From contig JBHLKM010000008.1 in NCBI GenBank assembly GCA_048886685.1, positions 96,001 to 160,000 of the forward strand: DNA of 64,000 bases, written 5' to 3'. Positions 9,143 to 53,157 of this stretch are shown one piece after another; position 1 is the stretch's first letter; every line of letters begins with the position of its first letter. Below the pieces are notes generated by a model, which was not told the origin of the DNA, did no database searches, and saw nothing but the letters and a program-made list of their open reading frames with translations. The translations under genes were made by a program, and so were the position numbers. This DNA is from Candidatus Hodarchaeota archaeon (lineage in GTDB: Archaea; Asgardarchaeota; Lokiarchaeia; Sigyniarchaeales; SOKP01).

Positions 9143-9376
9143 TTCTTTCTTCCCCTTTCTTTTCAATATAAAATTTTGCTAATTTTTATTAAATCATATT
9201 TAATTTTGGTAAAATATAATACTTTTGATTTACCTTAATATCAATTCCCTTTATATTATTCACGCGAAAAATCATCCTAATAATTTTAAGAAAATTTAGC
9301 ATTAAATGTTTAAATATTTTGGGAGATAAAATCAGTTAATAAAACAAAAAAAATACATAAAAAAGGTGAGAAGAAA

Positions 9377-10132
9377 ATTTCATTTGAAACAGTTCTTTAT
9401 GAAAGCAATAAGGAAACTAAAGTGGGGTATATAACTTTAAACAGACCTGAAAAACATAATGCATTAAGTTATCAACTACTTGACGATATAGATGCCGTTT
9501 TTGATCATGCGGAAGCAGATAACAATGTAAATGTTATCGTACTAAAAGGTGCAGGCAAAAGTTTTTGTTCTGGCTTTGATACAAAGGGGTCATATTATAT
9601 AACGCCTCCTGAAGGTGGTTGGAAATATAAGAATTCTTACGATATACTACGTAAAAAAATTTATGCGAAGTATCCGCGTATATTTAATTTCCCTAAGGTA
9701 ACAATCGCTCAAATTCATGGGCATTGTACTGATGCGGGATGTTATCTTCAACTTTGCTGTGATATTTCAGTTGCCGCTGAAGATGCTGTATTAGGACATC
9801 CTGCTCAATTATGGGGTGGTTCACAAAGCTTACCGCTATGGCAGTTTTACTTAGGCGTTAAAAAAGCACGATATCTTTTAATGAGTGGGAGAAGAATTTC
9901 AGGAAAGGAAGCTGCAGAAATGGGGCTTGTGAGTATAAGTGTCCCACGAGATAAACTCGATGAAGAAGTAAATAAATTAGCGGGAGAAATTGCCAAGATA
10001 CCACCTTGGGGAGCTTTGCACAATAAACTTGCGATGAATACTGATCTTAAAATTCGAGGTATTGATGCCTTATTTGAATACTATGGTCAGATGAATAGAT
10101 TCGGTAGATTTGTTCCGGGAAGATCACGTTGA
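9377..10132 (+). CDS. Enoyl-CoA hydratase/isomerase family; probable ATT start
   Basis: SD AGGTGA then ATT-TCA-TTT-GAA gives (M)SFETVLYESNKETKVGYITLNRP, matching paralog N-termini; SFCSGFD, QIHGHC. Confidence 0.85.
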   Translation: MSFETVLYESNKETKVGYITLNRPEKHNALSYQLLDDIDAVFDHAEADNNVNVIVLKGAGKSFCSGFDTKGSYYITPPEGGWKYKNSYDILRKKIYAKYPRIFNFPKVTIAQIHGHCTDAGCYLQLCCDISVAAEDAVLGHPAQLWGGSQSLPLWQFYLGVKKARYLLMSGRRISGKEAAEMGLVSISVPRDKLDEEVNKLAGEIAKIPPWGALHNKLAMNTDLKIRGIDALFEYYGQMNRFGRFVPGRSR

Positions 10133-10238
10133 GACTAAATATCACCTGATAACTATAATAAAATTATTTTTAACCAATTTTTTTAAAAGATATTATAATT
10201 TAAATTATTATTAGTAGAAAAGGAGGTTTTTATAGAAA

Positions 10239-11072
10239 ATGGAATATGAACAAATAATTTTTGAAACTTCAGAGGAGATTGCTACGATTACTCTAAATAG
10301 ACCAGAACGTTTGAATGCATGGACGTGGCAGATGGGCATGGAGGTGTGGGATGCACTGATGAAAGTGGAAGATGACCCTAATCTACGTGTTACAATTCTA
10401 ACTGGAGCAGGGAGGGGTTTTTGTGCAGGTGCAGATTTATCAGGAGGTGGTTCTACCTTTGATCCCTCAAAGCGTTCACGTGAAGAGCAAGAACAAAGAG
10501 ATAGGCGTGGAATAGCAATAAGTAGGTATTTTTCATTAAAGAAACCTGTAATAGTTGCGATTAATGGCCCAACTGTCGGGGTAGGTGTCACATTTATTCT
10601 ACCTTTTGACATCAGAATCGCATCTGAGAGTGCTCGTATAGGAATTGTCTTTAATCGACGTGGTGTTATACCTGAAATCGCCTGTCCTTGGATATTACCT
10701 CGTATCGTTGGGCTAAGTCGTGCTGCTGAACTAATGTATACTGGGAGAATATTAAATGCTCAAGAATCTTTAGAATTTGGACTCGTTAGTCGAGTTGTAC
10801 CAGATGATAAATTAATGGAGACCGCCCAAGAAATCGCTGATGAAATATTATTAAATGCACCTGTGAGTGTTGCTCTTACAAAAGTGATGTTATATCAATT
10901 TCTTACTGAACCAGACGCAGAGAAGGCAGAGAGGATTAACCACCGATATTTTACATGGACGGGATTGCAGCCAGATGCGCGTGAAGGAGTGATGTCTTTC
11001 CTTCAAAAGAGAAGACCTGAATGGAAATTAAAAGTACCTGGAGACTTACCTGATTTTTTCCCATTAGAGTGA
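10239..11072 (+). CDS. Enoyl-CoA hydratase/isomerase family
   Basis: LNRPERLNA, GFCAGADL, AINGPTVGVG; SD AGGAGG. Confidence 0.92.
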   Translation: MEYEQIIFETSEEIATITLNRPERLNAWTWQMGMEVWDALMKVEDDPNLRVTILTGAGRGFCAGADLSGGGSTFDPSKRSREEQEQRDRRGIAISRYFSLKKPVIVAINGPTVGVGVTFILPFDIRIASESARIGIVFNRRGVIPEIACPWILPRIVGLSRAAELMYTGRILNAQESLEFGLVSRVVPDDKLMETAQEIADEILLNAPVSVALTKVMLYQFLTEPDAEKAERINHRYFTWTGLQPDAREGVMSFLQKRRPEWKLKVPGDLPDFFPLE

Positions 11073-11079
11073 AATTAAA

Positions 11080-11436
11080 ATGTGTGCAAAGTTTAGGGGT
11101 ATCCCCGCATTAATATATTCAGGACTATGGAGACGGCAAATATTTGGGAAATTAAAAAATGATTTTCCAGAACGAATTGAATTCGTGGTGTTTATAAAAG
11201 ATCAACCCCCTGCCGTTTTGATTAAAATTGACAATGGAAATTTCGAGATGGAAAAATTAGAGGGAGTTAAGGAGATTTCAGAGTTAGAAAAAATGGAATG
11301 TGATGGATACTTTGCCGCATCTCAGAAATATGTTTTTGGAGGTCCTATTGCTTTACAGAAAGGGATTGAGGAGGGAAAAGTTAAAATGAAAAATGAAGCA
11401 ATTATCTTTTCAATATTACTTAGAATTAGAACTTAG
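11080..11436 (+). CDS. Hypothetical protein, SCP2 (sterol carrier)-like
   Basis: 118 aa; IKIDNG...CDGYF...GIEEGKVKMK resembles the SCP2 pattern; operonic spacing. Confidence 0.5.
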   Translation: MCAKFRGIPALIYSGLWRRQIFGKLKNDFPERIEFVVFIKDQPPAVLIKIDNGNFEMEKLEGVKEISELEKMECDGYFAASQKYVFGGPIALQKGIEEGKVKMKNEAIIFSILLRIRT

Positions 11437-11452
11437 ATAGGGGTGTTAAATT

Positions 11453-12610
11453 GTGATTAAAGTTCAAAAAATGTCAGCTCTTGAAAGAATAACAACAGTT
11501 CTAGAGGGAAAAATACCAGATAGAGTTCCCAGCTTTATCTTAGGTGGTGATTGTGATTTTGTATACAGATTTATGAATTCACCTTATAAACTTACAGAAG
11601 AGGATATGAAACTATTAGATAATGATCGGATTTCTTTTATGATTCCTTTTATCCATTCAATAGTTGCTAAATTTTCTCCTCCTGATATTTTTCCTGGAGG
11701 TCTCGATGCTAAAATTGATATGTGTTGGAGTACGACTGGTGGGGGATTCATACAATTAAGCTTCACCGATCAAGTCTTAACTAATAATGGTGGCACGTTT
11801 GATGCGGTTGTAAAAGAAGATGGAATACCACACTTCTGGTTTACGGGACCGGCACTATTAAAAAAAGAATATATAGAAGAATATTGGGAAAGGGAAAAAA
11901 ATTTGAAACCAAATCCCGCAGCCTTTCAAAATTTATCTAGAATTAGGAAAACTATGTTAGAGAAATATGATATTGTAGTTTCTCAGGGAATAACTGGTCC
12001 ATTTGAGAACTGTGTGTTTGGGATAGGACATGCAAATTTCGCTCGTTTTGCGAGGAAAGATCCAAGTTTCCTTCAACAACATATGGATTTCCAATGGGAA
12101 ACGATTGAAGAACCCTCTTTGAAGTTGTTAATGAAGCAAAAACCTGATGTGGTAATGTGTGGAGATGACTATGGTTTTAATGCAGGATTACAAATGAATG
12201 TTAAAAACTGGCGTAAATTTATTAAACCAAAATTAGCAGAATATGTTAAATATGCTCATGATGGTGCTGCTAAGTTTGTTATACATAGTTGTGGTAATAT
12301 AGCTGAGATATTCCCTGATTTTGTTGAAATTGGAATTGATGGGGTAGAATCTTTAAAACCAAAAAATAACGATTTAAAAATGTATAGAGAAAAATATCCT
12401 GAAATTACATTGATTGGTACTGTTGATGATTCAGAAATGTTAAAATATGAATCACCTGGATTTATTAGAAATTCAATTCGAGATGATATTCAAACTTTAG
12501 GAAAGAAAGGTGGCTATATACCGGGTCCAACAAATTTCTTATTGGATCAACCCCCTGAAAACATAGTTGCTCTATTTAAAGCGATACAGGATTACGGAAA
12601 AATATATTAA
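11453..12610 (+). CDS. Uroporphyrinogen decarboxylase superfamily (MtaA/CmuA-like) protein
   Basis: MSALERI...PDRVP, GDDYG, HSCGN, GGYI. Confidence 0.85.
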   Translation: MIKVQKMSALERITTVLEGKIPDRVPSFILGGDCDFVYRFMNSPYKLTEEDMKLLDNDRISFMIPFIHSIVAKFSPPDIFPGGLDAKIDMCWSTTGGGFIQLSFTDQVLTNNGGTFDAVVKEDGIPHFWFTGPALLKKEYIEEYWEREKNLKPNPAAFQNLSRIRKTMLEKYDIVVSQGITGPFENCVFGIGHANFARFARKDPSFLQQHMDFQWETIEEPSLKLLMKQKPDVVMCGDDYGFNAGLQMNVKNWRKFIKPKLAEYVKYAHDGAAKFVIHSCGNIAEIFPDFVEIGIDGVESLKPKNNDLKMYREKYPEITLIGTVDDSEMLKYESPGFIRNSIRDDIQTLGKKGGYIPGPTNFLLDQPPENIVALFKAIQDYGKIY

Positions 12611-12680
12611 GTATAAGTTTTTTTTTAATAGAATATAATTATAATCACTTATAAGTATCAAAATAACTAGATGAATTTTA

Positions 12681-13733
12681 ATGGTTATTGAGACGAATAT
12701 AACTAAGATGCTTGGAATTAAGCATCCTATAATTTCAGCTCCAATGGGTCCATTTTTTACGACTGAACTAACTATAGCTGTTTCAGAAGCTGGAGGTCTT
12801 GGAGTATTGAGTCATACTGGTTTACTCAGCGAATTTCAAGCTCGTAGATTTCCTACAGAGATAATGAAAGAGAATATGCTTAATGTGATTGAACATACTG
12901 ATAAACCTTTTGGTTTTAATATCAGAACTTCCCGAACTGAGCAAAGTGGGGCGAGAATTTGTAAAGAAATTCCAAAATTCCTATTAGAAAATCAAAGGGT
13001 TCGAGAACAATGCGTATATGTTGTAACTAGTGCAGGGTCTTCAAGAATCTTGCCTGAATCAAAATCTTTCCAAAAATTGAGGGAAAACGGTTCAAGTATC
13101 AAACATTTTCATGTTGCCCCTGCACTTTGGCTTGCAGATAAATGTGTTGCTACAGGTGTGGATGGTTTGGTGATTACTGGTGGTGAAGGAGGGGGACATC
13201 AATCATATGAAAGAGTAAGTACTCTTGTTTTGTTGCAACAGGTTATACAGAAATATCCAGATTATCCTGTTGTGGCATGCGGTGGATTTGCAACGGGGCA
13301 AGGTCTTGCGTCTGCTTTAGCCATGGGTGCTGGGGCTGTTGCGATGGGCTCACGGTTTATTGCATCTAATGAAAGTGAATTTCATGATACCTATAAGAAT
13401 ATAGTTCCTCCCGCAAAAGCTCAAGATACAATACTAACTACTGGTGCATTAGGGCTTATTCGCTTATGGAAAAATGAATATTCACTCCATCATGAACTTG
13501 TTGCAAATAAAGAAGAAAAATTGGCTCAAGAAGCAGCAATTACTCCAGAAGAAGCAACTGAAATAGCAGAAAAATACGAATTAGCCTACCGAGGCAATAT
13601 CAACGACGGTGCGGTGCCTCTAGGACAAAGCATTGGAGCTATTGATAAAATTGAAGATGTATCTAGTATTATTGATAGGATAATTAAGCATGCGGAAAAA
13701 AACTTGAGAAAAGTCTATTCTTATTTAAAGTAA
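12681..13733 (+). CDS. Nitronate monooxygenase/FabK-like FMN enzyme
   Basis: PIISAPMG, SEAGGLG, GGEGGGH, ACGGF, MGSRF. Confidence 0.9.
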   Translation: MVIETNITKMLGIKHPIISAPMGPFFTTELTIAVSEAGGLGVLSHTGLLSEFQARRFPTEIMKENMLNVIEHTDKPFGFNIRTSRTEQSGARICKEIPKFLLENQRVREQCVYVVTSAGSSRILPESKSFQKLRENGSSIKHFHVAPALWLADKCVATGVDGLVITGGEGGGHQSYERVSTLVLLQQVIQKYPDYPVVACGGFATGQGLASALAMGAGAVAMGSRFIASNESEFHDTYKNIVPPAKAQDTILTTGALGLIRLWKNEYSLHHELVANKEEKLAQEAAITPEEATEIAEKYELAYRGNINDGAVPLGQSIGAIDKIEDVSSIIDRIIKHAEKNLRKVYSYLK

Positions 13734-32180: not shown

Positions 32181-33521
32181 CTATTCTACTGTTTTCAAAT
32201 CTAGACCATAACTTTCTGGTATATAGACTAGAACAAGTGGAATTATTGGGAACATAAAGCATGTCAAAACGAGAGCTATGAACTGAATCCCGAATATTGG
32301 AAACAATGGAGCAGTAAAAACTCCTAGAAGTAACCCTGTTATGCTCATCACTAAAACCAACAGTCCGTTCCCAATCCCTCTTACATCTGTCGGAATAACC
32401 TCAATCGAAATTATCATCATTAAAGTCCATAATCCTGCTCTTGTTGACATTCCAAGTATTTTCAATATTATCATTACCATAAATCTCGTTTGTTCAGAGG
32501 GAATATGAGCCCCCCAAGTAAATTGTAAAATTACTGAAATAGGATATAAGAAACTATAAACGATTAACAAAACTTTTCTACCAGAGCGATCTGCTATTTT
32601 TCCTGTGATGATATAAAAAATTATGAGACCGAAAAGTCCGATCATTGAGATCATACTGAATTCTTCAGAACTCATTAAGGAATAATTCATGAAATAAGGT
32701 TCTAATAAATTACCTGAACCAACCGCAATGGTAAATAAAACTGAAATTATTATTAATACAATATAACCTTTCTTTCTCCCTCTCCCAAAAATTACTTCAA
32801 TACTCTCCCTAAAAGAATATTTAATCTCGGATTCCTCATTTAATTCTAAATCTCCACCTTTCTTTTTAAACAAATAAGCAGAAGTTTCCTTGATAGTAAA
32901 AATTATCAATAAGGTAGTGAATAAACCAGTTATTACTGAAAAATATAATACGCCTTTCCAGTGAGAAATAGTATATTCTTTATCATTAGTAATAAAAATT
33001 GAACGATTTATGTAAAAAGTTATTGGCCCAATTATCCCTATAAGTAAAATAATCGTTGACCATATCGCATTTTTCCCTTTTGGAGATTCTTCGTTTACAT
33101 AAATCATCCATACATTCACATTTGCCGCTACAGTTAAAAAAAAAGTTGTTATTGTAAAAATAAGAAGAGAAGTCGTTAAAATTTGAATTAATGGCATTAT
33201 TGTTAAAGTTACTCCGGATAAAATCAAAATAGGTTTTCTCCCCACTTTATCGGCAAATTTTTGGATAAAAATAGAGAAAAAACTCCCCAATCCAGCAATA
33301 ATCCCAACATAAGAAAGATAAGTCAAGCCGGTTTCGAAATCCAAATTCGGGAAAAAATACCAGACAAGAGCAGTTGTTTTTCCTCCTTCTAGTGTGTATG
33401 CACGAAAGGCTACAAAAAGAGATAAAATCCCTAACAAATAATATAGATAATGCTTTGAACGTGAAGCTTTAGAAGGAATACTAGTGGTTATATCGGTTTT
33501 TGTGGGTTTGTTAGTCGTCAA
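32181..33521 (-). CDS. MFS transporter
   Basis: About 12 hydrophobic segments; ADKVGRK and ADRSGRK motif-A loops; PES at the C-terminus. Confidence 0.88.
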   Translation of the reverse strand: MTTNKPTKTDITTSIPSKASRSKHYLYYLLGILSLFVAFRAYTLEGGKTTALVWYFFPNLDFETGLTYLSYVGIIAGLGSFFSIFIQKFADKVGRKPILILSGVTLTIMPLIQILTTSLLIFTITTFFLTVAANVNVWMIYVNEESPKGKNAIWSTIILLIGIIGPITFYINRSIFITNDKEYTISHWKGVLYFSVITGLFTTLLIIFTIKETSAYLFKKKGGDLELNEESEIKYSFRESIEVIFGRGRKKGYIVLIIISVLFTIAVGSGNLLEPYFMNYSLMSSEEFSMISMIGLFGLIIFYIITGKIADRSGRKVLLIVYSFLYPISVILQFTWGAHIPSEQTRFMVMIILKILGMSTRAGLWTLMMIISIEVIPTDVRGIGNGLLVLVMSITGLLLGVFTAPLFPIFGIQFIALVLTCFMFPIIPLVLVYIPESYGLDLKTVE

Positions 33522-33571
33522 AATAATAGAAAAGAGAATTTTTTTGGTTAAAATTTTAAACCTTTAATTGT

Positions 33572-33646
33572 TTACTTTTTCGCAATTCCAACACTTACAG
33601 CTCCCTGCTCTAATAAAAATTTTTCAACTTCTTCATTTAGATTAAT
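33572..33646 (-). pseudogene. 24-codon remnant resembling the N-terminus of QueG/reductive-dehalogenase-like Fe-S proteins
   Basis: SD GGTGA (33654-33658), ATT start, (M)NLNEEVEKFLLEQGAVSVGIAKK*; GAxxVGIA is typical of that family. Confidence 0.55.
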
Positions 33647-33821
33647 GCTTTTATCACCAGATTATCCCCGTTAAAAAAGCATTTAATACTAATCATTTTT
33701 GATTGTAAAAAACTTTTTCATTATTTTATGAAATGTAAACCTTTCTTGGCATTCATGAGATAAAATCATAAACTTAAGATAATATTAAGTTTTTCTCTAA
33801 ATATCGTTGCAGGTGATCATT

Positions 33822-34856
33822 ATAAAACCTATTAACAAATTTAAAACTTATAAGTTTGATGCGGCACCCTTCTTCTTTTTTATCGACATTTTTCCTCCTG
33901 ACTATCCTTTCGTAGATAAACCAGATTTTGCGAATTTAATCAATTCTATTGGAACAAATCCAATTATGCCCTTACCAATGAGAGTTGATCGAGTATTCAA
34001 TGGTGAAAAATCGGTTTTAATACGACCAAGAGAACCAATTTCTTTTCCAATAACCGAGGATTTTACAGCATTAATTAATCCTTCCCAGTTTCTTAAATTC
34101 GGTTTTGAAAAATTGTTGTATTATACTGAAATTCGATCTCGTGAGGCATTCTTTGTATCTCTTTCTCAAGAAAGAGTCTCGAAATGGTGGGCTTCTACTA
34201 AGTATCTTTATGGAAATCTAACTGCTATGGAAGAAGATTTCTCTGCTTTCTTAAGAGCTTATTTACATACAATTATTAAAGCAAAAGTGCTTGAGGAAGA
34301 TCTCATAGATGCTGCACTTAATTATTGTCAATTAGTATCAGATCTTTGTAGAAAACGATTAGAACAAAATACAATTCTCGTTGAAGTAGATGGAAAGCAA
34401 GAAAATGTGAAAATGTATAAAGTGAAAGAAGCTACATACTATAGAAAATTAAAAAAGTCTACAGAAACTGAATATCATCCAGAGTTAATAGACATTGAAA
34501 TATATGATCTCACAGACTTAGGTTTCTCAAATGAAAAAGATGATCGAGCTAGCCAATTGATTGGATTAAAAAAAAAATTGATAAAATATATCCCGCTTCT
34601 CTTTTATGATGATTTACTTGAATGCATGCTTCAAAATAAAAAAAGGCTCGAAGAAGATAAAAAAGATATTATAGATCCTTCTTTTCTTTTAGATAAAGGA
34701 ATTATTGCTACTAAAAACTCAAAAGATCTAGAGGAAATGAACATGGATGATTTCTCATGGTGGAAAAGTTTTGATACTATTAATTTTACCCCAATTTTGG
34801 AATCTATTAGAAAAACTCAACGAGAATTTCTCCTTACCTTTGAATTTGAGAAATAA
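33822..34856 (+). CDS. Hypothetical protein; possible ATA start
   Basis: Long ORF; AGGTGA at 33811-33816 lies inside the called TTG/GTG starts and 5 nt before ATA-AAA-CCT. Confidence 0.7.
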   Translation: MKPINKFKTYKFDAAPFFFFIDIFPPDYPFVDKPDFANLINSIGTNPIMPLPMRVDRVFNGEKSVLIRPREPISFPITEDFTALINPSQFLKFGFEKLLYYTEIRSREAFFVSLSQERVSKWWASTKYLYGNLTAMEEDFSAFLRAYLHTIIKAKVLEEDLIDAALNYCQLVSDLCRKRLEQNTILVEVDGKQENVKMYKVKEATYYRKLKKSTETEYHPELIDIEIYDLTDLGFSNEKDDRASQLIGLKKKLIKYIPLLFYDDLLECMLQNKKRLEEDKKDIIDPSFLLDKGIIATKNSKDLEEMNMDDFSWWKSFDTINFTPILESIRKTQREFLLTFEFEK

Positions 34857-35033: not shown

Positions 35034-36170
35034 ATGTTGTACAAGAAAGAAAGACCAGCAATTTTAATGCTTAAAAGTGGGAAATACTTCGAGGGTGTAG
35101 GATTCGGAGCGATAAAACAAGTTACTGGAGAACTGGTTTTTAATACAATGACAGGTGCTGGTTATAACGAGACTTTAACGGATCCCTCATATCAAGGTCA
35201 AATTGTTACAATGACCCATCCTCTCATAGGAAATTATGGTGTTCCCCCTTGGGAGAAGGATAAATATGGTATTTTAAAACATTTTGAATCAGATTCCATA
35301 AAAGTGTCAGGTTTTATCGTGAATGAATGTTGTAAAAAACCCAGCCATTATGAGAGTATAAAAACTTTAGATGATTTCCTTCGCGAGGAAGATATCCCTG
35401 GAATCGAATGGGTAGATACTAGGGCGATAACAAAACTATTAAGAGAAGAGGGTGTTCAAGTAGGATTACTCTCTGTATTAAACTCAGGAGAAAAACCTGA
35501 TTTTGAACAATTAAAAGAGGATGTTATAAAAGCAGAAGATCCTAATCTACGACATTTAGCAAGTGAAGTTTCAACAAAAGAAGTAAAAATTTATAGTCAA
35601 CCTAACCCGATCGGAAAAGTTGTTGTCTTAGATATGGGAGTAAAATTGAATATCTTACGAAATTTTGCAGAAAGAAGATTAGAAATTATAGTTGTCCCAT
35701 ATGATTATTCCTATGATCAAATTATGGATTTTCAGCCAAATGGAGTTTTTATATCAAATGGTCCAGGAGACCCTGCATTGTATAAGGGCGCTATTAATGT
35801 TTGTAAGAAATTAATAGAAAATAATATCCCAACATTTGGAATTTGTTTAGGAAATCAAATTATAGGATTAGCTGCAGGAGGATCATCTTATAAACTGAAA
35901 TACGGGCATAGAGGGGGGAACAAGACAGTTATAAATACTGAGACAAACCACTGTTATATTACTTCTCAAAATCATGGTTTTTGTGTAAAAGATTTTGAAA
36001 TTGGCGGTTTTAGGGAGTTTTTAAAAAATATTGATGATAAATCCAACGAAGGATTAGTTCATGAACATAAACCTATTTTTGCTGTACAATTCCACCCTGA
36101 AGCTTGTCCTGGCCCCCTAGACTCTTTATATCTATTTGATAAATTTATGGAAGTAATGGAGCTAAAATAA
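35034..36170 (+). CDS. carA: Carbamoyl-phosphate synthase small subunit
   Basis: LTDPSY, SNGPGDP, FGICLG, SQNHG, QFHPE. Confidence 0.97.
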   Translation: MLYKKERPAILMLKSGKYFEGVGFGAIKQVTGELVFNTMTGAGYNETLTDPSYQGQIVTMTHPLIGNYGVPPWEKDKYGILKHFESDSIKVSGFIVNECCKKPSHYESIKTLDDFLREEDIPGIEWVDTRAITKLLREEGVQVGLLSVLNSGEKPDFEQLKEDVIKAEDPNLRHLASEVSTKEVKIYSQPNPIGKVVVLDMGVKLNILRNFAERRLEIIVVPYDYSYDQIMDFQPNGVFISNGPGDPALYKGAINVCKKLIENNIPTFGICLGNQIIGLAAGGSSYKLKYGHRGGNKTVINTETNHCYITSQNHGFCVKDFEIGGFREFLKNIDDKSNEGLVHEHKPIFAVQFHPEACPGPLDSLYLFDKFMEVMELK

Positions 36171-36171
36171 A

Positions 36172-39100
36172 ATGCCATTAGATAAGAGTATAAAAAAAGC
36201 ATTGGTGCTTGGATCTGGTGGTATTCGAATTGGGCAGGCAGGTGAATTCGATTATAGCGGGTCGCAAGTTCTGAAAGCTTTACAGGAAGAAGGAATAGAG
36301 ACGATTTTGATTAACCCTAATATAGCAACAATCCAGACTGATCCTCAAATGTCGGATCGCGTCTATTTATTACCTCTAAATATTAAATATGTAGAAGAAG
36401 TCATTAAAAAGGAGATGCCTGATGGTTTATTATTATCTTTTGGTGGTCAAACAGCATTAAATGTCGGAGTTGAATTAAGTGAAGAAGGTATATTAGATAA
36501 ATATAAATTAAGAGTATTAGGAACGCCAATAGAAGCTATTGAAGCAACAGAAGACCGAGATCTATTTGTTAAAGCAATGGAGCGATCTAATGTTAAAGTA
36601 TGTAAAAGCCAAGCGGTAAACTCATATTCAGAAGCGTTAAAGGCTGTTGAAGAAATTGGATTTCCTTGCATGATTCGAGTAGCATATACTTTAGGTGGAA
36701 GAGGATCTGGTATTGTTAATAATATGAAAGAATTCGAAAGAATGGCTAAGAAAGCTTTAGCTCAATCAAGGATTAATCAAATTCTTATTGAAGAGAGTAT
36801 ATGGGGCTGGAAGGAAATTGAATACGAAGTTGTAAGAGATTCTGAAGATAACTGTTTTATTAATTGTAACATGGAGAACTTTGATCCAGTGGGACTCCAC
36901 ACAGGTGAATCTTTTGTTGTAAGCCCTAGTCAAACACTTACCAATGAAGAATACCAGATGCTTCGTTCTGCATCAATTAGAGTTATTCGAAATCTTGGCA
37001 TTATTGGGGAGTGTAATATTCAATATGGGTTAGATCCATTTTCAAAAGAATTTCGAGCAATAGAGGTAAATGCTAGACTTTCAAGATCGTCAGCATTAGC
37101 CTCAAAAGCGACGGGGTATCCTTTAGCATATATAGCAGCAAAACTAGCAATAGGCTATACCTTACCCGAATTAAAAAACAAAATTACTGGAATTACCACC
37201 GCATGTTTTGAACCCGCATTAGATTATCTAGTGTTAAAGATTCCAAGATGGGATCTCACTAAATTTAAAAAAGTTGACCGAAGATTAGGTTCCCAAATGA
37301 AAAGTGTGGGAGAAGTAATGGCAATTGGTAGAACATTTGAAGAAGTGCTTCAGAAAGCTATTCGGATGTTAGACATTGGTATGAAAGGATTTGTAGCCAA
37401 TGATTTAGAACCCATTGATGACATCAATGAATTAAAGTATGCTTTAAGAAATCCGACCGACTTAAGAGTGTTCAGAATTGCTGAAGCAATTAAAAGAGGA
37501 ATTTCTATCGATGAAATTTATCGCCTATCAAGAGTAGATACATGGTTTCTTCATAAATTAGAAAATATAATTGATATTGAACGTAATTTAAAAAATCTGG
37601 ACTTACTAGAGACCTCAGATAATGAAAAAAATTACTGGCTAGAAAGGGCAAAAAGGTATGGCTATTCTGATGGACAAATTGCCAAAATAATGGGAGTAGA
37701 TACAATATTTATAAGACAATTGAGAAGAAAATTAGGAATTCATCCTTTTGTTAAAAGGATTGACACTTTAGCTGCCGAGTGGCCAGCAGTAACAAATTAT
37801 TTATATCTCACGTATAATGCATCCGAACATGATATAGATTTTGAACAGGAAAATAAATCAAATCTTAGAAAAGTAATTGTTCTAGGCTCAGGTACTTATC
37901 GTATTGGAGCATCTGTCGAGTTCGATTGGGGATCTGTTAATTGCTTATGGGGTTTAAAAAAATTAGGCATTGATCAAGCAATTATGATTAATTATAACCC
38001 TGAAACGGTATCTACTGATTACGATATATCTGATAAATTATACTTCGAAGAAATCTCTGGTGAAAGAGTACTTGATATTTGTGAACTGGAAAAAGCAACT
38101 GGTATAGTAGTATCTGCTGGAGGTCAGATAGCAAATAATTTAGCTGCAAAAATCACAAAATATTCTGAATTCTTTAGAAAAACTAATTTGAAGATCCTTG
38201 GTACCCATGGTACAAGAATAGATATGGCAGAAGATAGAAGTAAGTTTAGCGCGTTATTGGACCAGTTGAATATAAAACAACCAGATTGGAATGCATTAAT
38301 AGAGAAAGATGAGGCAATAAAATTTGCCAAAGAAGTTGGTTATCCTGTGTTAGTTAGGCCATCTTATGTGTTAAGTGGAGCTGCTATGAGAGTGTGTTAT
38401 GATGAAAAAACGCTCAGGGACACTCTTGATCTTGCTGCTTCTGTTTCAAGAGAATATCCGGTTGTAATTACTAAATTTTTCATCAATGCAAGGGAGATTG
38501 AATGTGATGGAATTTGCGATGGAGATAATGTACTAATCGGCGCCATAGTAGAGCATATAGAAAATGCTGGAATTCATTCGGGAGACGCTACTATGTCCAT
38601 TGGTTTTTATACTATTTCAGACGAAGTTATTAAGGAAATTGAGGGTAATACCAAAAAGATTGCACTTGCATTAAAAATCCAAGGACCTTTTAATGTTCAA
38701 TATATGATTAAGAACGGAGATGTTTATGTAATTGAGTGTAATTTACGTAGTTCAAGATCTATGCCATATGTCTCGAAAACTCGAGGGATTAACTTAATGA
38801 GATTAGCAGCAGAGGTAATAATGGGCAACGAAATTCCTAAAAGACTCCTAAATCTACCTTATGGAAACTATGTTGGAATTAAAGCCCCAATGTTTTCTTT
38901 TCTAAGATTAGATAAAGCCGATTTTCGACTTGGGGTTGAAATGGCATCTACAGGGGAGATTGGAATAATAGGAGACGATTTTCAAGATGCGTTAATAAAA
39001 GCTTTAGAAGCTACTGAAATGCGTATCCCTGTGGAGGGCGGGAATGTATTAATTTCAGTAGGTGGAGAAGAACTAAAGAAACAAATAATTCCTCTTGCCA

Positions 39101-39483
39101 AAAAATTAAAGAGTTTAGGCTTTACAATATTTGCTACAGAAGATACGGCATTGGCATTAAAAAACAGTGGAATTTATGCTGTAAAACTCTACAAAATTCA
39201 AGAGGCTGGGATGGAACCAAATATTATGGGTTGTCTTCAAAATGGAGCAATTGACTTAGTAATTAATATTCCTCTACCAACTACAGTAGAGGAAAAATTT
39301 GCCAAAATAATAGAGGATGAATACAAAATTAGAAGGATGGCGGTCGATTATAATATTCCAGTGATAATAAATTTACAACTTGCAAGAGCAGTTGTAGATG
39401 CGATAGGAAATGTTCGGAAAAAAAAAGTTGAGATAAAGTCTCTTAACGAGTATCATCAGAATTTAAAAGAAGTTTATTGGTAA
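36172..39483 (+). CDS. carB: Carbamoyl-phosphate synthase large subunit
   Basis: GQAGEFDYSGSQ, EVNARLSRSSALASKATGYP, NPETVSTDYD, RPSYVLSG, C-terminal MGS domain. Confidence 0.98.
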   Translation: MPLDKSIKKALVLGSGGIRIGQAGEFDYSGSQVLKALQEEGIETILINPNIATIQTDPQMSDRVYLLPLNIKYVEEVIKKEMPDGLLLSFGGQTALNVGVELSEEGILDKYKLRVLGTPIEAIEATEDRDLFVKAMERSNVKVCKSQAVNSYSEALKAVEEIGFPCMIRVAYTLGGRGSGIVNNMKEFERMAKKALAQSRINQILIEESIWGWKEIEYEVVRDSEDNCFINCNMENFDPVGLHTGESFVVSPSQTLTNEEYQMLRSASIRVIRNLGIIGECNIQYGLDPFSKEFRAIEVNARLSRSSALASKATGYPLAYIAAKLAIGYTLPELKNKITGITTACFEPALDYLVLKIPRWDLTKFKKVDRRLGSQMKSVGEVMAIGRTFEEVLQKAIRMLDIGMKGFVANDLEPIDDINELKYALRNPTDLRVFRIAEAIKRGISIDEIYRLSRVDTWFLHKLENIIDIERNLKNLDLLETSDNEKNYWLERAKRYGYSDGQIAKIMGVDTIFIRQLRRKLGIHPFVKRIDTLAAEWPAVTNYLYLTYNASEHDIDFEQENKSNLRKVIVLGSGTYRIGASVEFDWGSVNCLWGLKKLGIDQAIMINYNPETVSTDYDISDKLYFEEISGERVLDICELEKATGIVVSAGGQIANNLAAKITKYSEFFRKTNLKILGTHGTRIDMAEDRSKFSALLDQLNIKQPDWNALIEKDEAIKFAKEVGYPVLVRPSYVLSGAAMRVCYDEKTLRDTLDLAASVSREYPVVITKFFINAREIECDGICDGDNVLIGAIVEHIENAGIHSGDATMSIGFYTISDEVIKEIEGNTKKIALALKIQGPFNVQYMIKNGDVYVIECNLRSSRSMPYVSKTRGINLMRLAAEVIMGNEIPKRLLNLPYGNYVGIKAPMFSFLRLDKADFRLGVEMASTGEIGIIGDDFQDALIKALEATEMRIPVEGGNVLISVGGEELKKQIIPLAKKLKSLGFTIFATEDTALALKNSGIYAVKLYKIQEAGMEPNIMGCLQNGAIDLVINIPLPTTVEEKFAKIIEDEYKIRRMAVDYNIPVIINLQLARAVVDAIGNVRKKKVEIKSLNEYHQNLKEVYW

Positions 39484-39691
39484 TTCTTCTTTTTTCTGTG
39501 CTATCTTTTATTAATGAAACTATTAATGACAGTAAGAAATTTAGTGATACTAAAGGGTTTAAGTTCTTAGCTATAGTTGTTCTTAGTATAATATTTAAAA
39601 GTTAATTAATAGAAATCTTGAAAAATCTTGAAAATATATCACAATTTATTATTTATTTAATATCTGAAGATTTAACTTAGGTGTCAATTAG

Positions 39692-39976
39692 ATTTATTTT
39701 CGTGGTTACATTTTAATTCGATTGAAAATCATCGGGACTCAATGGAAAGTTGCAGAAAAACTAAAAGGTCTAAAACCTAAAAACTCAAAAGAAGATTGGG
39801 AAATAACATACGCTACACCTATTTATGGGGGATGGGATTTAATGGTTGAGTGTAGCTTTAACGATTTGGATGACTTAGAAAAAATTGTTACTTTTTGTCG
39901 AACTGATGAGGAATTATCTGAATGGATAGAAGCAACTACAACCCTAATTAGTACAAAGAGGAATTATCCCCCTTAA
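39692..39976 (+). CDS. Stand-alone Lrp/AsnC ligand-binding (RAM) domain; ATT start
   Basis: (M)YFRGYILIRLK...YATPIYGGWDLMVE...IEATTTLI; in-frame TAG at 39689-91 directly precedes ATT; SD AGGTG. Confidence 0.75.
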   Translation: MYFRGYILIRLKIIGTQWKVAEKLKGLKPKNSKEDWEITYATPIYGGWDLMVECSFNDLDDLEKIVTFCRTDEELSEWIEATTTLISTKRNYPP

Positions 39977-47816: not shown

Positions 47817-49166
47817 CTATAGCCGAATATAGCGTTCTCTTTCCCAATCACTCACAACAACTCTATAAGCATCAAATTCCTCTAATTTAGCATAGTAGTA
47901 ATTCTTAAATGCTGTTTCACCAAATATTTCTTTCATTGATTCAGATTCTTTAAACTCCAATAACGCTTCATGTAAACTACCGGGTAGAGATACAATACCT
48001 TCCTTTTCCATTTCTTTACTGGAAAGATGGTAAACATTTCTATCTGTTGGTTCAGATATTTCAATGTCATCTGATAATACACCTTCCAAACCTGTAGTTA
48101 AAAGCACGGCAAACTGAAGATATGGATTTCCAGACGGATCTGGGCATCGAATTTCACATCGAGCGGCATTAGGTCTACCGTGAAAATCAGGTACCCTAAT
48201 CAGAGGTGACCTGTTACGAAATCCCCAAGCAAGATATACAGGGGCCTCATAACCTGGGACGAGTCTTTTATATGAATTTGGCCAGCTACTTAGAACAGCA
48301 CACATGGCTCTTGAATGTTTTAATTGACCTGCTATCCATTTCTTCATTGTTAGTGATATATTATCTTGATCGTTTTCATCATAAAATGCATTATTACCAT
48401 TTTTCCATAATGACTGATGTACATGCATACCTGAACCATTAATTCCATGAAAGGGTTTTGCCATGAAAGTTCCAGTAAGATTGTGGTTTGCTGCAACCGT
48501 TTTGACTATTGTTTTAATAGTTATTGTATTGTCAGCGGTATTCACAGCCTCATCATAACGAAAATCAATCTCATGTTGACCATAAGCAACTTCATGATGA
48601 ATACACTCAACATTAATTCCCATTGCATCACTATATTCTGCAATTGTATATCTTATCATCTCATTTTTATCATATGGATCATAATCGAAATATCCTCTCA
48701 TATCTGATGGTTTAAATTCTGCTTTAGTATCTGGAGTTAGTATAAAAAATTCCATTTCAGGTGCACAAAAATATTTATAACCATGTTCTTTTGCCTTATT
48801 TGTAGCACGCTGTAAAATATAACGAGGATCCCCCTCATATCGTTCACCATCAGGTTTATAAATATCACAAATAACTCGAGCAACCTTGTTTTCTTTTCGC
48901 CATGGTAAGAGGTAAAAAGTGCTCGGATCAGGAAGTGCAACTTTATCAGATTCCTCAATAGCTCCATATCCTGTTATCGAACTTCCATCAAAATTTTCTC
49001 CTACTTCAAAAATATCTTCAATTCTCTTAGAATTAATCTCAAATGATTTAATAATTCCATGAATATCTGTAAATTGAAGATAGATAAATTTAATCCCTTC
49101 CTCCTTAATCCTCTCTATCACAGCATCACACATTTCTTTCCTTTTTGGATTATCTTTTTCAATCAT
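47817..49166 (-). CDS. glnA: Glutamine synthetase type I (GSI-alpha-like)
   Basis: FDGSSI, PEMEFF, HHEVAYGQHEI, FMAKP, NGSGMHVHQSL, NSYKRLVPGYEAP, EIRCPD. Confidence 0.97.
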   Translation of the reverse strand: MIEKDNPKRKEMCDAVIERIKEEGIKFIYLQFTDIHGIIKSFEINSKRIEDIFEVGENFDGSSITGYGAIEESDKVALPDPSTFYLLPWRKENKVARVICDIYKPDGERYEGDPRYILQRATNKAKEHGYKYFCAPEMEFFILTPDTKAEFKPSDMRGYFDYDPYDKNEMIRYTIAEYSDAMGINVECIHHEVAYGQHEIDFRYDEAVNTADNTITIKTIVKTVAANHNLTGTFMAKPFHGINGSGMHVHQSLWKNGNNAFYDENDQDNISLTMKKWIAGQLKHSRAMCAVLSSWPNSYKRLVPGYEAPVYLAWGFRNRSPLIRVPDFHGRPNAARCEIRCPDPSGNPYLQFAVLLTTGLEGVLSDDIEISEPTDRNVYHLSSKEMEKEGIVSLPGSLHEALLEFKESESMKEIFGETAFKNYYYAKLEEFDAYRVVVSDWERERYIRL

Positions 49167-49192
49167 TTTTTATAACTCTTTTAGTTGTTATT

Positions 49193-49564
49193 TTATTCAT
49201 AAATTAGAGATGAATCTTTTTTACTCCTCATAAACGTGGAAAAATCTTTTATGGTTAATGCTTTTCGAATGTTTTCTGAATTCAAATTTAACTTATTATT
49301 AGGTTCACAATTCCAGTCGTAGGATGCTCTTTCGTGAATTGCAAAATTATTGGGTTCTGGAGTTAAATCTTTAATTAGTTCACAAGTTTTACTTGTTTTA
49401 AACGCAATTGTATCAATACCTAAAAAAATTGAACAATTCCATTTATTATTGTCTCGACCTCCAAAATCTGTTAATCCACTAGATATAGAATAATCTTCAC
49501 ACTCCTGACAGATTTTACTATCATAACGGTACTTTTTTCCACAAACAGGACATTTTATTTCCAT
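49193..49564 (-). CDS. Uncharacterised Zn-ribbon protein, first gene of the glnA unit
   Basis: CPVCGKKYRYDSKICQEC, KWNC, YDWNC; ends LIYE; 26 nt upstream of glnA. Confidence 0.75.
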   Translation of the reverse strand: MEIKCPVCGKKYRYDSKICQECEDYSISSGLTDFGGRDNNKWNCSIFLGIDTIAFKTSKTCELIKDLTPEPNNFAIHERASYDWNCEPNNKLNLNSENIRKALTIKDFSTFMRSKKDSSLIYE

Positions 49565-49661
49565 TTTTTCATATTCTCTCTCATTTAATTTTTGATTTAA
49601 TTAATTTTTCAAAAAGAAATATACGTATATTGCCAAATTAAATCAATTTTTATTTTTATAT

Positions 49662-49675
49662 GGGATTTAAACCCC
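49662..49675. promoter_or_regulatory. Candidate operator GGGA-N6-TCCC (variant GGGATTTAAACCCC)
   Basis: Lies between minus-strand TATA TTTATATA (49709-49716) and the Zn-ribbon/glnA unit. Confidence 0.6.
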
Positions 49676-49913
49676 ATTTTTTATCCTTTAACAATAAATG
49701 TGATCGTATATATAAAAATCTTTTGATCAATTATCTCAAATATTCATTTCTTGATAAAAATGTTAACAATATATTTAATAATCATTGAATAAAGTGACCG
49801 ATTGATTATTTAGAAATTTTTTGTCGTTATAGAGAATGATCATTTGAATATTTTTTATTGCTTTATTTAATCAAATGCATACTTTTATAATTATTTCATA
49901 ACTATCTATTAAT

Positions 49914-50417
49914 ATGGTTGTTAATTCTAAGATAGTTAACTTATCTGATTTGGATAAGAAGATCCTAACTAAACTAGACGAAGATGGAAGATTATCATTT
50001 CGTCATCTTGCTAAAGACTTAGAAGTAGGTTCACCTGTAACCATTAAAAATCATGTTGAGAATTTAGAAGAAAAGGGTGTTATTAAAAATTATGGAGTAC
50101 AGATTGATTATGAAAAACTAGGGTATGATATTATCGCTCTTATTGAATTAACGGTTTCAAAAGGTAAAATGCTTGAAGTTGAAAATAAATTAGCCCAGAA
50201 CCCAAACATTTTTGCTGTGTATGATATTACAGGAACATATGATGCTCTTATTCTTGCGAGATTTAAAACTAGGGCGGAGCTAAGCGAAATGATAAAAGAA
50301 GAAATACATACTTCTCCCTATGTTGAACGAACTAATACTCATATAGTTTTAAATATTATTAAAGAGGAATTTTCTTTTAAAAATTTGATAGAAAAAGAAG
50401 GAATAGAACTTCAATAG
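49914..50417 (+). CDS. Lrp/AsnC family transcriptional regulator
   Basis: LSDLDKKIL..LDEDGRLSFRHLAKDL HTH, LEEKGVI, VYDITGTYD. Confidence 0.95.
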   Translation: MVVNSKIVNLSDLDKKILTKLDEDGRLSFRHLAKDLEVGSPVTIKNHVENLEEKGVIKNYGVQIDYEKLGYDIIALIELTVSKGKMLEVENKLAQNPNIFAVYDITGTYDALILARFKTRAELSEMIKEEIHTSPYVERTNTHIVLNIIKEEFSFKNLIEKEGIELQ

Positions 50418-50439
50418 CAATCTAAAGCGAGGATACTGA

Positions 50440-50592
50440 AAACGTTCAACAAAAATCATTAATTATTAATACTAGGATTGAATCCAAAGATAAATGTTCA
50501 CTGAAATAAATCTTTATGTTTAAAATGTTCACAAAATCGAATATTCTGTAGACTATTTACTATTTTTAATATGAAAAAATATAAAATGTTCA
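50440..50592 (+). repeat. Four direct repeats AAAYGTTCA
   Basis: At 50440 (AAACGTTCA), 50492, 50523 and 50584 (AAATGTTCA); spacings 52, 31, 61 nt. Confidence 0.6.
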
Positions 50593-50777
50593 ATAACCTT
50601 ACACAAAACTTAAATAGAAGAAGATTTTCACTGAATAATTTTCATAAGAAACGTATAATATTAATAGATCTTTCATTTATATTTAACTATTCTTGTCGAA
50701 AGGTTTAGAAAAATTATGAAAAGACATAATTTCTTTCAATAAATTATAAATAGAAGTTCTCCTTTAGTAATAAATAA

Positions 50778-50791
50778 GGGAACTTGTTCCC
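50778..50791. promoter_or_regulatory. Candidate operator GGGAACTTGTTCCC
   Basis: GGGAAC-TT-GTTCCC palindrome 26 nt after TATA-like TTATAAAT (50744-50751). Confidence 0.65.
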
Positions 50792-50861
50792 ACAAATAAA
50801 AAAATAAGACATAAAAGAGGTAAAAAAAAATAAAAAAATTTTTTGAAAGGAGGTTTTAAAA

Positions 50862-51077
50862 ATAACAGTTCAAGAGTATTTTCGAACATGGGAAGAAATT
50901 TGCTTGGAAAAACTAAAAGAAATAGGAAGATGCTCAGCAGCCGAATGGGCTAGGGCAATGGGATATGGAGATAATCGTAATGGTGTGACAACAGTAATAA
51001 AACGAATAAAAAAAACTATGCCTGAAAGGTTAACGGTTTATTATAACACCAGGCCACGATTATATGAAGCTGTATAA
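50862..51077 (+). CDS. Small winged-helix-like protein, ATA start, absent from the ORF track
   Basis: SD AAAGGAGGT 7 nt upstream; (M)TVQEYFRTWEEICLEKLKEIGRCSAAEWARAMGYGDNRNGVTTVIKRIKKTMPERLTVYYNTRPRLYEAV*. Confidence 0.75.
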   Translation: MTVQEYFRTWEEICLEKLKEIGRCSAAEWARAMGYGDNRNGVTTVIKRIKKTMPERLTVYYNTRPRLYEAV

Positions 51078-51107
51078 ACAGAATATTAAAGTAGAGTGTG
51101 AATTAAG

Positions 51108-51620
51108 ATGCCATTAAAATGCCAAATTTGTGGAAAAGAATATTTATATGATGGAAAGATATGCCATAGCTGCGAAGAGAGTGCCATTACAAGTGGTTTG
51201 ACATCTCGAGAGGGATATGAACATAAGTGGAGATGTGATAATTTTATTGAACCGAATGGTTTAGTATTTGGAAGCAATTTAAATAAGAGAAGAGAGTTTA
51301 CATTAAAATTAATTGAATGTCCTGAATGTGGAGAAAAGTATTCCTATGGCAGAAAAATCTGTCATGTCTGTGAAGGTAATTTATTGCCGTTTGGAACGTT
51401 ATTCGATTCAGATCGCAAGGCACGTAGGTGGAATTGTGAAACAGTATTAGCTTGTATAGAGATATTGTCATCTAATTTAGATACTACTGAGACCATTGTA
51501 AAAGATGTACCCCATTTAGAAAAACTCGAGAAAACTGATTATAAATGGAATCAAGTTTCGACTATAAAATATAATAATGAACAAATAGATGGGAAGAACA
51601 AGCTTCTGATCTATGAATAA
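51108..51620 (+). CDS. Uncharacterised double Zn-ribbon protein, paralog of 49193..49564
   Basis: CQICGKEYLYDGKICHSC...KWRC and CPECGEKYSYGRKICHVC...RWNC; ends LIYE. Confidence 0.78.
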   Translation: MPLKCQICGKEYLYDGKICHSCEESAITSGLTSREGYEHKWRCDNFIEPNGLVFGSNLNKRREFTLKLIECPECGEKYSYGRKICHVCEGNLLPFGTLFDSDRKARRWNCETVLACIEILSSNLDTTETIVKDVPHLEKLEKTDYKWNQVSTIKYNNEQIDGKNKLLIYE

Positions 51621-51816
51621 ATATCATTTTTTAAATTCAAGATTATTAAAAAAAAGTAAAAATAATGAATATAACTCAGGTTAAAATTATGAGCATTGTA
51701 GTAGTAAAGAAGGTAGCTTATACATCTAATTAAAATTAAGTTATTTCTTTATGGTTTTACTTAATATTTTCATTTTATTTTAAAGTAACTTAATGTAATT
51801 AAAGAGGTTAAAAAAA

Positions 51817-53157
51817 ATTCAACAAGAGATAATGTTATTTCCAGGATGCGTGATAGTAAATAGATTTCCCTTTATTGAAGTCTCAATAAGGAAAGTATTT
51901 GATCATCTGGGAATATCTTTTACTGAAAATCCCAAATTTTCTTGTTGTCCAGATCCAAATGGCATTAAAAATTCTAATAAGTTATTATATTCTATTACCG
52001 CAGCTCGCAATATTGCTCTTGCTGAGTTAGAAAATAAAGCAATATTAACACCCTGTAACGGATGCTTTAGCACATTAAAAAAAGTCAAAAGTGAAATCGA
52101 TACAGATCACCATTTCAAAAGGAAAATCAATAGTTATTTAGATAAGATTGATATCAAGGTTGAGGGAAAGACTGAAGTATTCCATATGGTTGATTTCATT
52201 TTCAAATTTAAGAGAGACACTATCAGGGATAATTTAATATATCCACTGACGGGATTAAGAGTTGCTGTGCATTATGGATGTCATTTTCTTAGACCAAGCA
52301 ATAAAGTTCAGATAGATGATCCCTTGGAACCAGCAATCTTTGATGACTTAATTAAGGATTTAGGTGCTGAAAGTATAGATTATAATCTTAAAATGGATTG
52401 TTGTGGGGGAATTCTCGAGAGAGCTGGAAATTCAAGTTTATCATTAGAAATTATTAAAGCAAAATTAGAAAGCATGAAAGAAAAAGATGTGGATTGCATT
52501 GTTGTTTGCTGTCCTCAATGTTATATGCAATTTGATCATTTACAACAGGAAATGAAAAAATTTGACTTTAATTATGACATTCCTGTGCTATATTATTCAG
52601 AATTATTATCTCTCGCATTAGGGCTAGATCTCCGAGATATTATTAAAAAGCATCATAGAACCCAAGTTGATTCACTTTTTGAAAAGATCGATCTCATCCA
52701 AGAGAAAAATAAGGAGATAAGAAAATTCTTCGATCTTACCTTTTTACTTAAATGCTATTCATGTGGGGCATGCGATGACGATTGTATTATCTCAAAGATG
52801 ACCGAATTTAGTCCGAAGGCACTCATAGGCAATATTATCAAAGGAAAAATTGATCAGGTAATCTCAGATCCTTCTATTTGGATGTGTCTCGACTGTTATT
52901 TGTGTTATGAGCTTTGTCCGATGGGAATTGGCCTAATTGAAATTTTTACTATATTACGAAATTTAGCAAAAGAAAGAGGTTTTATCACTAAAGGATTTGA
53001 AAAGGAATTTAACGCTTTTTACAAAAAAGGAATAGTAGGAATGCCTTCGAAGGCAGCACGATCTAGAGTTGGATTACCATCACATATACCGGATGTTGGA
53101 GATTTGAAAGATTTGTTTAATGTAGTAGAAAGAGAGAATACAAAACTAGAGGAATAA
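51817..53157 (+). CDS. HdrB-HdrC fusion (two CCG domains plus 2x[4Fe-4S])
   Basis: FPGC, SCCP, PCNGC, HYGCH, DCCGG, CPQC, then CYSCGACDDDC and CLDCYLCYELCP; start is ATT 51817 (after GAGGT) or ATG 51832. Confidence 0.88.
   Translation: MQQEIMLFPGCVIVNRFPFIEVSIRKVFDHLGISFTENPKFSCCPDPNGIKNSNKLLYSITAARNIALAELENKAILTPCNGCFSTLKKVKSEIDTDHHFKRKINSYLDKIDIKVEGKTEVFHMVDFIFKFKRDTIRDNLIYPLTGLRVAVHYGCHFLRPSNKVQIDDPLEPAIFDDLIKDLGAESIDYNLKMDCCGGILERAGNSSLSLEIIKAKLESMKEKDVDCIVVCCPQCYMQFDHLQQEMKKFDFNYDIPVLYYSELLSLALGLDLRDIIKKHHRTQVDSLFEKIDLIQEKNKEIRKFFDLTFLLKCYSCGACDDDCIISKMTEFSPKALIGNIIKGKIDQVISDPSIWMCLDCYLCYELCPMGIGLIEIFTILRNLAKERGFITKGFEKEFNAFYKKGIVGMPSKAARSRVGLPSHIPDVGDLKDLFNVVERENTKLEE

Follow-up and report, generated by a model that had tools for sequence, protein, structure and literature searches.

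The question raised by this locus is whether genes of an archaeon can open at ATT, ATA or ATC (collectively ATH; AUH in mRNA) in addition to the canonical start codons ATG, GTG and TTG. The locus is a 64-kb stretch, referred to here as the window, at positions 96001-160000 of contig C8 in the assembly labelled G000, from a member of the Lokiarchaeia (Promethearchaeota). An earlier reading made from the DNA letters only (the sequence-only reading) had listed six sites in the window at which a Shine-Dalgarno (SD) motif is followed closely by ATT or ATA, and had proposed that start-codon selection is relaxed in this lineage. All six motifs are present, and ATH starts in the lineage are supported both by tests on orthologs and by a genome-wide excess, relaxed selection being one of two readings of them. 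On this comparative evidence it is highly probable that AUU, AUA and AUC are genuine initiation codons in the genus, placed approximately 6-8 nt after the SD, and dozens of intact genes, including those encoding ribosomal protein uS10 and the initiation factor aIF1, very probably start at ATH behind a ribosome-binding site.

The assembly (4.42 Mb in 47 contigs, ~31% G+C) is a metagenome-assembled genome (MAG) with 8% estimated contamination, and small-subunit rRNA was not found in it. The SD template GGAGGTGATC is the complement of a generic archaeal anti-SD, a choice supported by a G-rich block at -14 to -8 upstream of ATG genes. A strict SD was defined as a 5-mer of GGAGGTGATC at an offset D of 12-18, where D is counted from the virtual first base of the template to the start codon; ~13% of ATG genes carry such an SD (D 12-18, mode 14-15), and the six window sites, with D of 13-15, fall within the SD spacing of ATG genes. 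For the ortholog test, homologous loci were taken from 17-23 same-genus genomes and from further families within the order. Rfam families and tRNAs were not found within the 64-kb window.

Start codons at the six window sites

The fourth site opens a gene for a stand-alone RAM-domain protein of 94 aa (39692..39976, plus strand), in which the SD AGGTG (39679..39683, plus strand) is followed after 8 nt by ATT 39692, with an in-frame TAG (39689-39691) directly before the start. An (A/G)GGTG-type motif (TGGTG in two) stands 8 nt before ATT or ATC in all 20 copies from the genus, and the GTG within the motif is out of frame. These copies represent two paralog lineages; the start codon is ATT in 13 of them and ATC in seven, and a stop codon, variously TAG, TGA or TAA, lies directly upstream of it in 8/20, the window's copy included. 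The residues Y-Y-R-G-Y-I-L-I-R that follow the ATT are encoded with synonymous variation among copies, and the TTG at 39722 varies between TTG, CTG, TTA and CTA. In homologs from other families an ATG or GTG lies 2-5 codons upstream.

The AlphaFold2 (AF2) model of this protein (predicted local distance difference test, pLDDT, 87) has strands at residues 3-11, 36-44, 49-56 and 79-88 and helices at 17-25 and 59-71, and thus displays the RAM fold, a beta-alpha-beta-beta-alpha-beta arrangement of ~80 residues with no helix-turn-helix. Foldseek matched it to 2cvi, 2e1a, 2djw and 2zbc with target-normalised template-modelling (TM) scores of 0.73-0.79, and the best PDB matches are the stand-alone RAM modules 2cvi, 2e1a and 2zbc; the Pfam match to AsnC_trans_reg is weak (E 0.008, below the cut-off). 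A start at TTG 39722 would remove the first strand, at residues 3-11. The orthologs and the model together indicate that ATT 39692 is a real, conserved start, in agreement with the earlier suggestion that an ATT following an in-frame TAG restores the first RAM strand. The gene lies directly downstream of carA and carB, encoding carbamoyl-phosphate synthase (window 35034-39976), an arrangement that fits an amino-acid-sensing regulator of the operon.

The fifth site opens a small conserved protein of 71 aa with no Pfam family (50862..51077, plus strand), and here AGGAGGT (50848..50854, plus strand) is followed after 7 nt by ATA 50862, with no canonical codon in the five open codons upstream. The start codon is ATA in five species, where GGAGG(T/A) is kept 7 nt before it, and ATG in seven further copies from the same genus. 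Residues R8, T9, E11 and C14 are invariant and all precede TTG 50904, the first canonical codon, which itself varies between TTG, TTA, CTA, CTG and CTC. The codons of the orthologs thus identify ATA 50862 as a real and conserved start, as had been proposed.

The first site concerns an enoyl-CoA hydratase gene (9377..10132, plus strand), whose product belongs to the crotonases with a Pfam ECH_1 match of E 2.5e-43 (148.7 bits, cut-off 27). Its SD AAGGTGA (9363..9369, plus strand) is followed after 7 nt by ATT 9377, and the 21 open codons upstream contain no ATG, GTG or TTG, as the sequence-only reading had stated. The codon homologous to ATT 9377 is ATG in 14 orthologs of the same genus and TTG in one, each of the 15 being preceded by an AAGGTGA-type motif, and at the next canonical codon of the gene, GTG 9422, most orthologs have an Ile codon. 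The gene begins ATT TCA only in this genome, its relatives having ATG GAA. Judging from these alignments, ATT 9377 occupies the true start position and reflects a recent ATG-to-ATT change in a single genome. The gene forms part of a tandem crotonase pair (window 9377-11072), and about two dozen ECH_1 paralogs occur in the genome (24 matches), 11-24 being typical of the genus.

At the second site, on the minus strand (33572..33658), the SD GGTGAT (33658-33653) is followed after 6 nt by ATT 33646, and the frame stays open for 24 codons to a stop at 33574-33572. The orthologous ATT, 6 nt behind GGTGAT, opens a gene of 392-396 aa in the closest relatives, G003 and G017, the frame in G016 comprises 80 codons, and a paralog in the same genome (C21, minus strand, 41169) likewise begins at ATT. 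These comparisons point to a genuine ATT start whose gene has decayed or been deleted in this genome; the proposed start is upheld by the relatives, while what remains here is only a relic. The decayed region (window 33572-33700, minus strand) corresponds to a QueG/RDH-like Fe-S gene of close relatives that has been cut to the SD, the ATT and 24 codons. A candidate reading of the site as the N-terminus of the adjacent MFS gene was rejected, the relic being separate and in another frame. The MFS transporter gene itself (window 33521-33563, minus strand) has its first canonical codon at TTG 33521, and an ATT at 33554, 5 nt after AAGGT and near the upstream stop, may be a further ATT start that would add 11 residues.

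The sixth site precedes a gene encoding an HdrD-like protein with Pfam CCG and 4Fe-4S (Fer4) domains (51817..53157, plus strand). The SD AGAGGT (51803..51808, plus strand; GAGGT at D = 14) is followed after 8 nt by ATT 51817, with no in-frame canonical codon upstream, and an ATG follows five codons downstream at 51832. This ATG lacks an SD, and in the alignment with paralogs it falls on an internal Met (K-M-F-x-G-C); each of the 24 homologs has five or more residues before the F of F-x-G-C, and there would be seven counting from ATT 51817 and two counting from ATG 51832. A close ortholog was not found within the genus. The motif described earlier is thus present and the homologs favour, on balance, a start at ATT 51817, with ATG 51832 as the alternative.

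The third site did not hold up. Here GGTGATC (33811-33817) is followed by ATA 33822, but TTG 33807 and GTG 33813 lie in frame upstream, and the GTG, which sits inside the putative SD, is kept in 14/17 orthologs, the other three having an ATG 1-4 codons upstream instead. At the position of ATA 33822 the orthologs have ATA, ATT, ATC, GTA, GTC, TTT, TTC or AAA. The proposed ATA start was rejected in view of the conserved in-frame GTG and the variable ATA codon, and the gene, which has no Pfam family (33813..34856, plus strand), most likely starts at GTG 33813. One ortholog (locus L098 of genome G004) reads GTG and then ATT TAG ATT, so that an in-frame stop cuts the GTG from the gene; unless this gene is broken, its start would have to be the ATT after the TAG.

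Genome-wide counts and further ATH genes

Strict SD 5-mers followed by ATH at D 12-18 occur 13,475 times in the genome, or ~195 times per 64-kb window. As the combination is common by chance, the motif alone is uninformative, and the informative property is its link to long open reading frames (ORFs) without a canonical start. The genome-wide score therefore counted the cases in which a triplet behind an SD opens an ORF of 100 codons or more, has no canonical codon upstream of it in the same frame and does not share its SD with one. Long ORFs were opened by 113 of the 13,475 ATH triplets (0.84%) vs 424 of 115,184 other non-start codons (0.37%; odds ratio, OR, 2.29, p 6e-13), an ATH excess obtained with the kind of SD-to-codon statistics that the sequence-only reading had put forward as a check. 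The excess persisted against the AT-only codons AAA, AAT, TAT, TTA and TTT (0.84% vs 0.43%; OR 1.95, p 4e-7), and in the pre-start regions of 3,625 long ORFs an SD preceded 95 of 4,256 ATH codons (2.2%) vs 276 of 23,640 others (1.2%; p 2e-7). The ratio of ATH to control codons was 3.2-fold higher at D 13-15 than at D 20-30 (p 1e-9), and the modal arrangement is GGTGA, 6 nt and ATH.

Corrected for background, the strict-SD excess corresponds to ~63 sites for ATH, 227 for ATG, 61 for TTG and 5 for GTG; ATH is as common as TTG among strictly SD-led starts. The association was replicated in 800 kb of a closed chromosome from the same genus (OR 2.64, p 2e-5). Regardless of the SD, alignments of paralogs reach at least eight residues upstream of the first canonical codon in 141 of 536 testable ORFs, a count that provides a rough upper guide (~4%), alignment ends being imprecise and some of these ORFs possibly being split genes.

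Regarding individual genes, a Pfam scan was applied to the 20 SD-led ATH candidates whose first canonical codon lies farthest downstream. The Pfam domain begins inside the N-terminal extension in 12 of them, usually 5-10 residues after the ATH; eight are uninformative and none contradicts the ATH start. Among the 12, for example, the domain begins at residue 5 for Ribosomal_S10, 6 for the GPN-type ATP_bind_1, 8 for Response_reg and for the cytidylyltransferase, 10 for ThiF, 14 and 24 for Roadblock and 26 for SUI1. The ThiF, GPN GTPase, PPAT, response-regulator/Lrp fusion, Roadblock and ADP-forming acetyl-CoA synthetase (ACD) genes have ATH in every ortholog examined from the same genus, and the third position in these six genes alternates between T, C and A; ATG was never seen. 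The uS10 gene starts with ATA in all 20 members of the genus, other families having nearly always ATG or GTG, and ATT in one.

The gene encoding aIF1 (G000 C33:8614-8934, minus strand, locus L123; orthologs L133-L162 and L193-L251) has a Pfam SUI1 match at residues 26-97 (E 6e-17). It starts with ATT, or ATC in two, in ~55 species, behind a near-invariant 19-nt leader, AAGGTTGTGA[T/A]AAGAGAGT, that is far better conserved than other leaders; the count excludes the closed same-genus chromosome G005:C1, in which the start region (~1385050-1385110; L154, L246) reads N. Other Lokiarchaeial genera start the gene with ATA, TTG or GTG and Heimdallarchaeia with ATG or GTG. Inspection of aIF1 for fidelity substitutions, which had been suggested as a check, gave none specific to the genus: the QGDHR motif is unchanged, and the differences from other archaea (F-x-G-N-F for G-I-D, C-A-S-G-G) are also present in TTG-using Lokiarchaeial genera.

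Alignment of orthologs therefore places the ATG of relatives on the ATH codon at the first and fifth window sites and finds ATH itself kept at the second and fourth and in eight further genes. It also disposes of the possibility, raised at the outset, that homology begins only at the downstream canonical codons, which vary as ordinary Leu, Val and Ile codons. To the extent that sequence comparison can establish it, these data show that coding begins at ATH, that no canonical codon is available there, that the SD spacing is that of ATG genes and that the arrangement is kept across independent assemblies.

Other near-cognate starts such as CTG and ACG may also be in use. ACG ranks highest among the other codons in the SD statistic (7/694). 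In a zf-AN1/rhomboid gene (G000 C15:10714-10756; L113:50-93) the AN1 finger begins upstream of the flagged ATC, and a CTG, 6 nt after the GGTGA of GGTGAT and preceded by an in-frame TGA, is the sole start-like codon located at SD spacing.

Alternative readings

Each of these genes has some downstream canonical codon, and translation could in principle begin at the first of these, the conservation upstream being that of non-coding regulatory DNA or RNA, or the genes being N-terminally truncated pseudogenes. The ATG five codons after the ATT at the sixth site and the ATT unique to this genome at the first site would suit such an account. It is nevertheless very improbable, because the downstream codons vary among orthologs like any Leu, Val or Ile codon, the upstream stretches combine synonymous-site variation with invariant protein sequence, and Pfam domains start within them in 12/20 genes; moreover, the RAM model needs residues 3-11 as its first strand, and aIF1 begun at its first canonical codon would comprise the C-terminal half only. 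Misreading of ATG as ATT or ATA during sequencing, assembly or binning deserves consideration in a 47-contig MAG with the contamination given above, but dozens of MAGs from separate studies, as well as two closed chromosomes, carry the same ATH codons, and the interchange of T, C and A at the third position does not resemble one recurrent miscall, which leaves this explanation hardly any probability. The N-termini might also lie further upstream and be reached by recoding (stop read-through, a frameshift from the GTG of GGTGA or an unrecognised intron), the ATH codons then being internal Ile codons. In its favour, the modal GGTGA-6 nt-ATH arrangement puts the TGA within the SD in frame, and a tRNA-Sec is predicted in the genome; against this, orthologs of the RAM gene differ in the stop before the ATH (TAG, TGA or TAA), the region preceding the SD is unconserved and holds no common ORF, GGTGA has its GTG out of frame, and Pfam domains lie 5-10 residues after ATH as they do for true N-termini. 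Recoding is accordingly as far-fetched an explanation as misreading.

A further account accepts the ATH starts as real and regards them as deliberately weak, selected for low or aIF1-dependent expression, so that they would form an enlarged regulon with no general lowering of fidelity. This is a serious possibility, though we hold it to be short of probable. In 10/12 gene families examined the third position is T, C or A and never G across the genus, even though these three interchange freely, and aIF1 avoids ATG across the whole order (ATT, ATA, TTG or GTG). Yet uS10, a ribosomal protein needed in stoichiometric amounts, has ATA throughout the genus, the alternation of ATG and ATA at the fifth window site and the change from ATG to ATT at the first suggest near-neutral exchange, and the absence of ATG was counted over related, non-independent genomes. 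Relaxed proofreading and selected weak or regulated starts are two readings of these data. Where ATH has long been conserved, the lack of ATG favours selection; the ATA of uS10 and the exchanges among ATG, ATA and ATT at the first and fifth sites favour relaxed proofreading.

Several points weigh against genuine ATH initiation as such, or against its confinement to the genus. All the evidence is comparative. The SD-to-ATH statistic is uncalibrated on a genome known to lack ATH starts, and in 800 kb of a closed genome from another family, of equal G+C, ten ATH sites were counted vs ~5 expected (OR 2.1, p 0.04). That genome thus still has a weak ATH excess and represents a lower level, not a clean negative control; the ATH habit is concentrated in the genus and faint elsewhere in the order. 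With a strict SD in only ~13% of ATG genes, the SD dependence of the ATH starts is partly built into the filter. For aIF1, a TATA-like box lies ~36 nt upstream, and the transcript start might fall inside the supposed SD, leaving a very short leader. Among the window genes, the sixth has its usable ATG five codons downstream, and the ATT of the crotonase gene, the only one confined to a single genome, could be an assembly error or a disabling mutation.

Mechanism, annotation and known systems

The initiator tRNA (gene at G000 C30:10443-10546) has the anticodon CAU, A1:U72 and three G:C pairs in the anticodon stem; a 25-nt intron interrupts its gene immediately 3' of the anticodon loop, and the CCA end is gene-encoded. 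A dedicated AUH-reading initiator tRNA was not found, this being the single initiator-like tRNA (CAU) with no paralog, in a search whose detection is incomplete in an intron-rich genome and whose ARAGORN intron mode is noisy; ARAGORN reported only 14 intron-less tRNAs in the assembly, including the predicted tRNA-Sec. A possible mechanism is that the duplex of SD and anti-SD holds the ATH codon in the P site, where the single CAU initiator would pair with A and U and tolerate a mismatch at the third position, so that the product would still start with Met. As aIF1, the rejecter of non-AUG codons, would itself start at AUU, its synthesis could exert negative feedback on stringency in the manner of bacterial infC. 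The AUH starts may then be a selected class whose use depends on how much aIF1 is present. They would be part of a stringency homeostat in an archaeon, analogous to infC/IF3 and directly orthologous to eIF1 autoregulation, an idea that we consider rather unlikely. If it were true, control of start-codon stringency by the level of a factor would predate the eukaryotes, with uS10 and many housekeeping genes tied into it.

There are also consequences for annotation. NCBI translation table 11 includes ATT, ATC and ATA as possible starts, and the likeness between table 11 with PGAP and the present finding extends to one NCBI record of the clade in which uS10 is called from ATA, with 101 aa. Prodigal-type callers differ in accepting only ATG, GTG and TTG, and the public uS10 proteins of the clade in ENA, Logan and JGI have 94 aa from the TTG at codon 8, shortly before which the SD and ATA are intact; a true ATG is found in relatives that are further removed (84% identity). 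The suspicion that standard gene callers cut genes short in this lineage is thus confirmed for uS10. Gene finders limited to ATG, GTG and TTG truncate or drop a few percent of the genes in these Asgard genomes, among them the universal marker uS10 and aIF1, and such truncation distorts catalogues of proteins, predicted structures, estimates of completeness and phylogenomic matrices for a lineage used to reconstruct the origin of eukaryotes.

Regarding known systems, bacterial infC, encoding IF3, has an AUU start with translational autoregulation, and pcnB likewise starts with AUU. The aIF1 gene resembles infC in its near-cognate AUU behind an SD, in being itself the non-AUG-started gene of a fidelity factor and in the conservation of this start across a clade; discrimination against non-AUG codons is the role described for aIF1, which destabilises non-AUG complexes in other archaea (PMC6237735), as start-codon discrimination has been reviewed for IF3 (PMC4611024). 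It differs in that aIF1, with its SUI1 fold, is not homologous to IF3 and the feedback is proposed by analogy, and in that dozens of unrelated genes, including that of uS10, share the habit here, with AUU, AUA and AUC interchangeable. A second parallel is near-cognate initiation in eukaryotes together with the autoregulation of eIF1, which acts through a poor initiation context (Ivanov et al., 2010, cited in PMC6237735): eIF1 is the ortholog of aIF1, the mRNA of each factor has a sub-optimal start, and each factor disfavours such starts. The eukaryotic case differs in relying on AUG in a weak Kozak context and on scanning, whereas the AUU of aIF1 is apparently placed by an SD.

Among archaea, the start codons given in a review are AUG, GUG and UUG, with AUH not included (PMC7531240). 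The lineage shares with other archaea the SD-assisted placement of the start and one CAU initiator tRNA, and departs from them in a strict-SD excess for ATH (~63) that equals that for TTG (61) and is far above that for GTG (5). The only mention of an ATH start in Asgard archaea found in the literature concerns a Heimdallarchaeial tubulin with a 'likely rare ATT start codon' (PMC13394414), which is similar in that an ATT behind a plausible ribosome-binding site gives back the first beta-strand to a protein whose GenBank entry is truncated, and different in that it concerns one gene, in a methods section, with no claim of a lineage-wide pattern. The finding described here is a lineage-scale variant of near-cognate initiation. 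With third-position near-cognates that rival UUG in use and an AUU start on the gene of the proofreading factor, the lineage provides a natural system for studying how stringency is set and regulated in the archaeal and eukaryotic type of initiation machinery.

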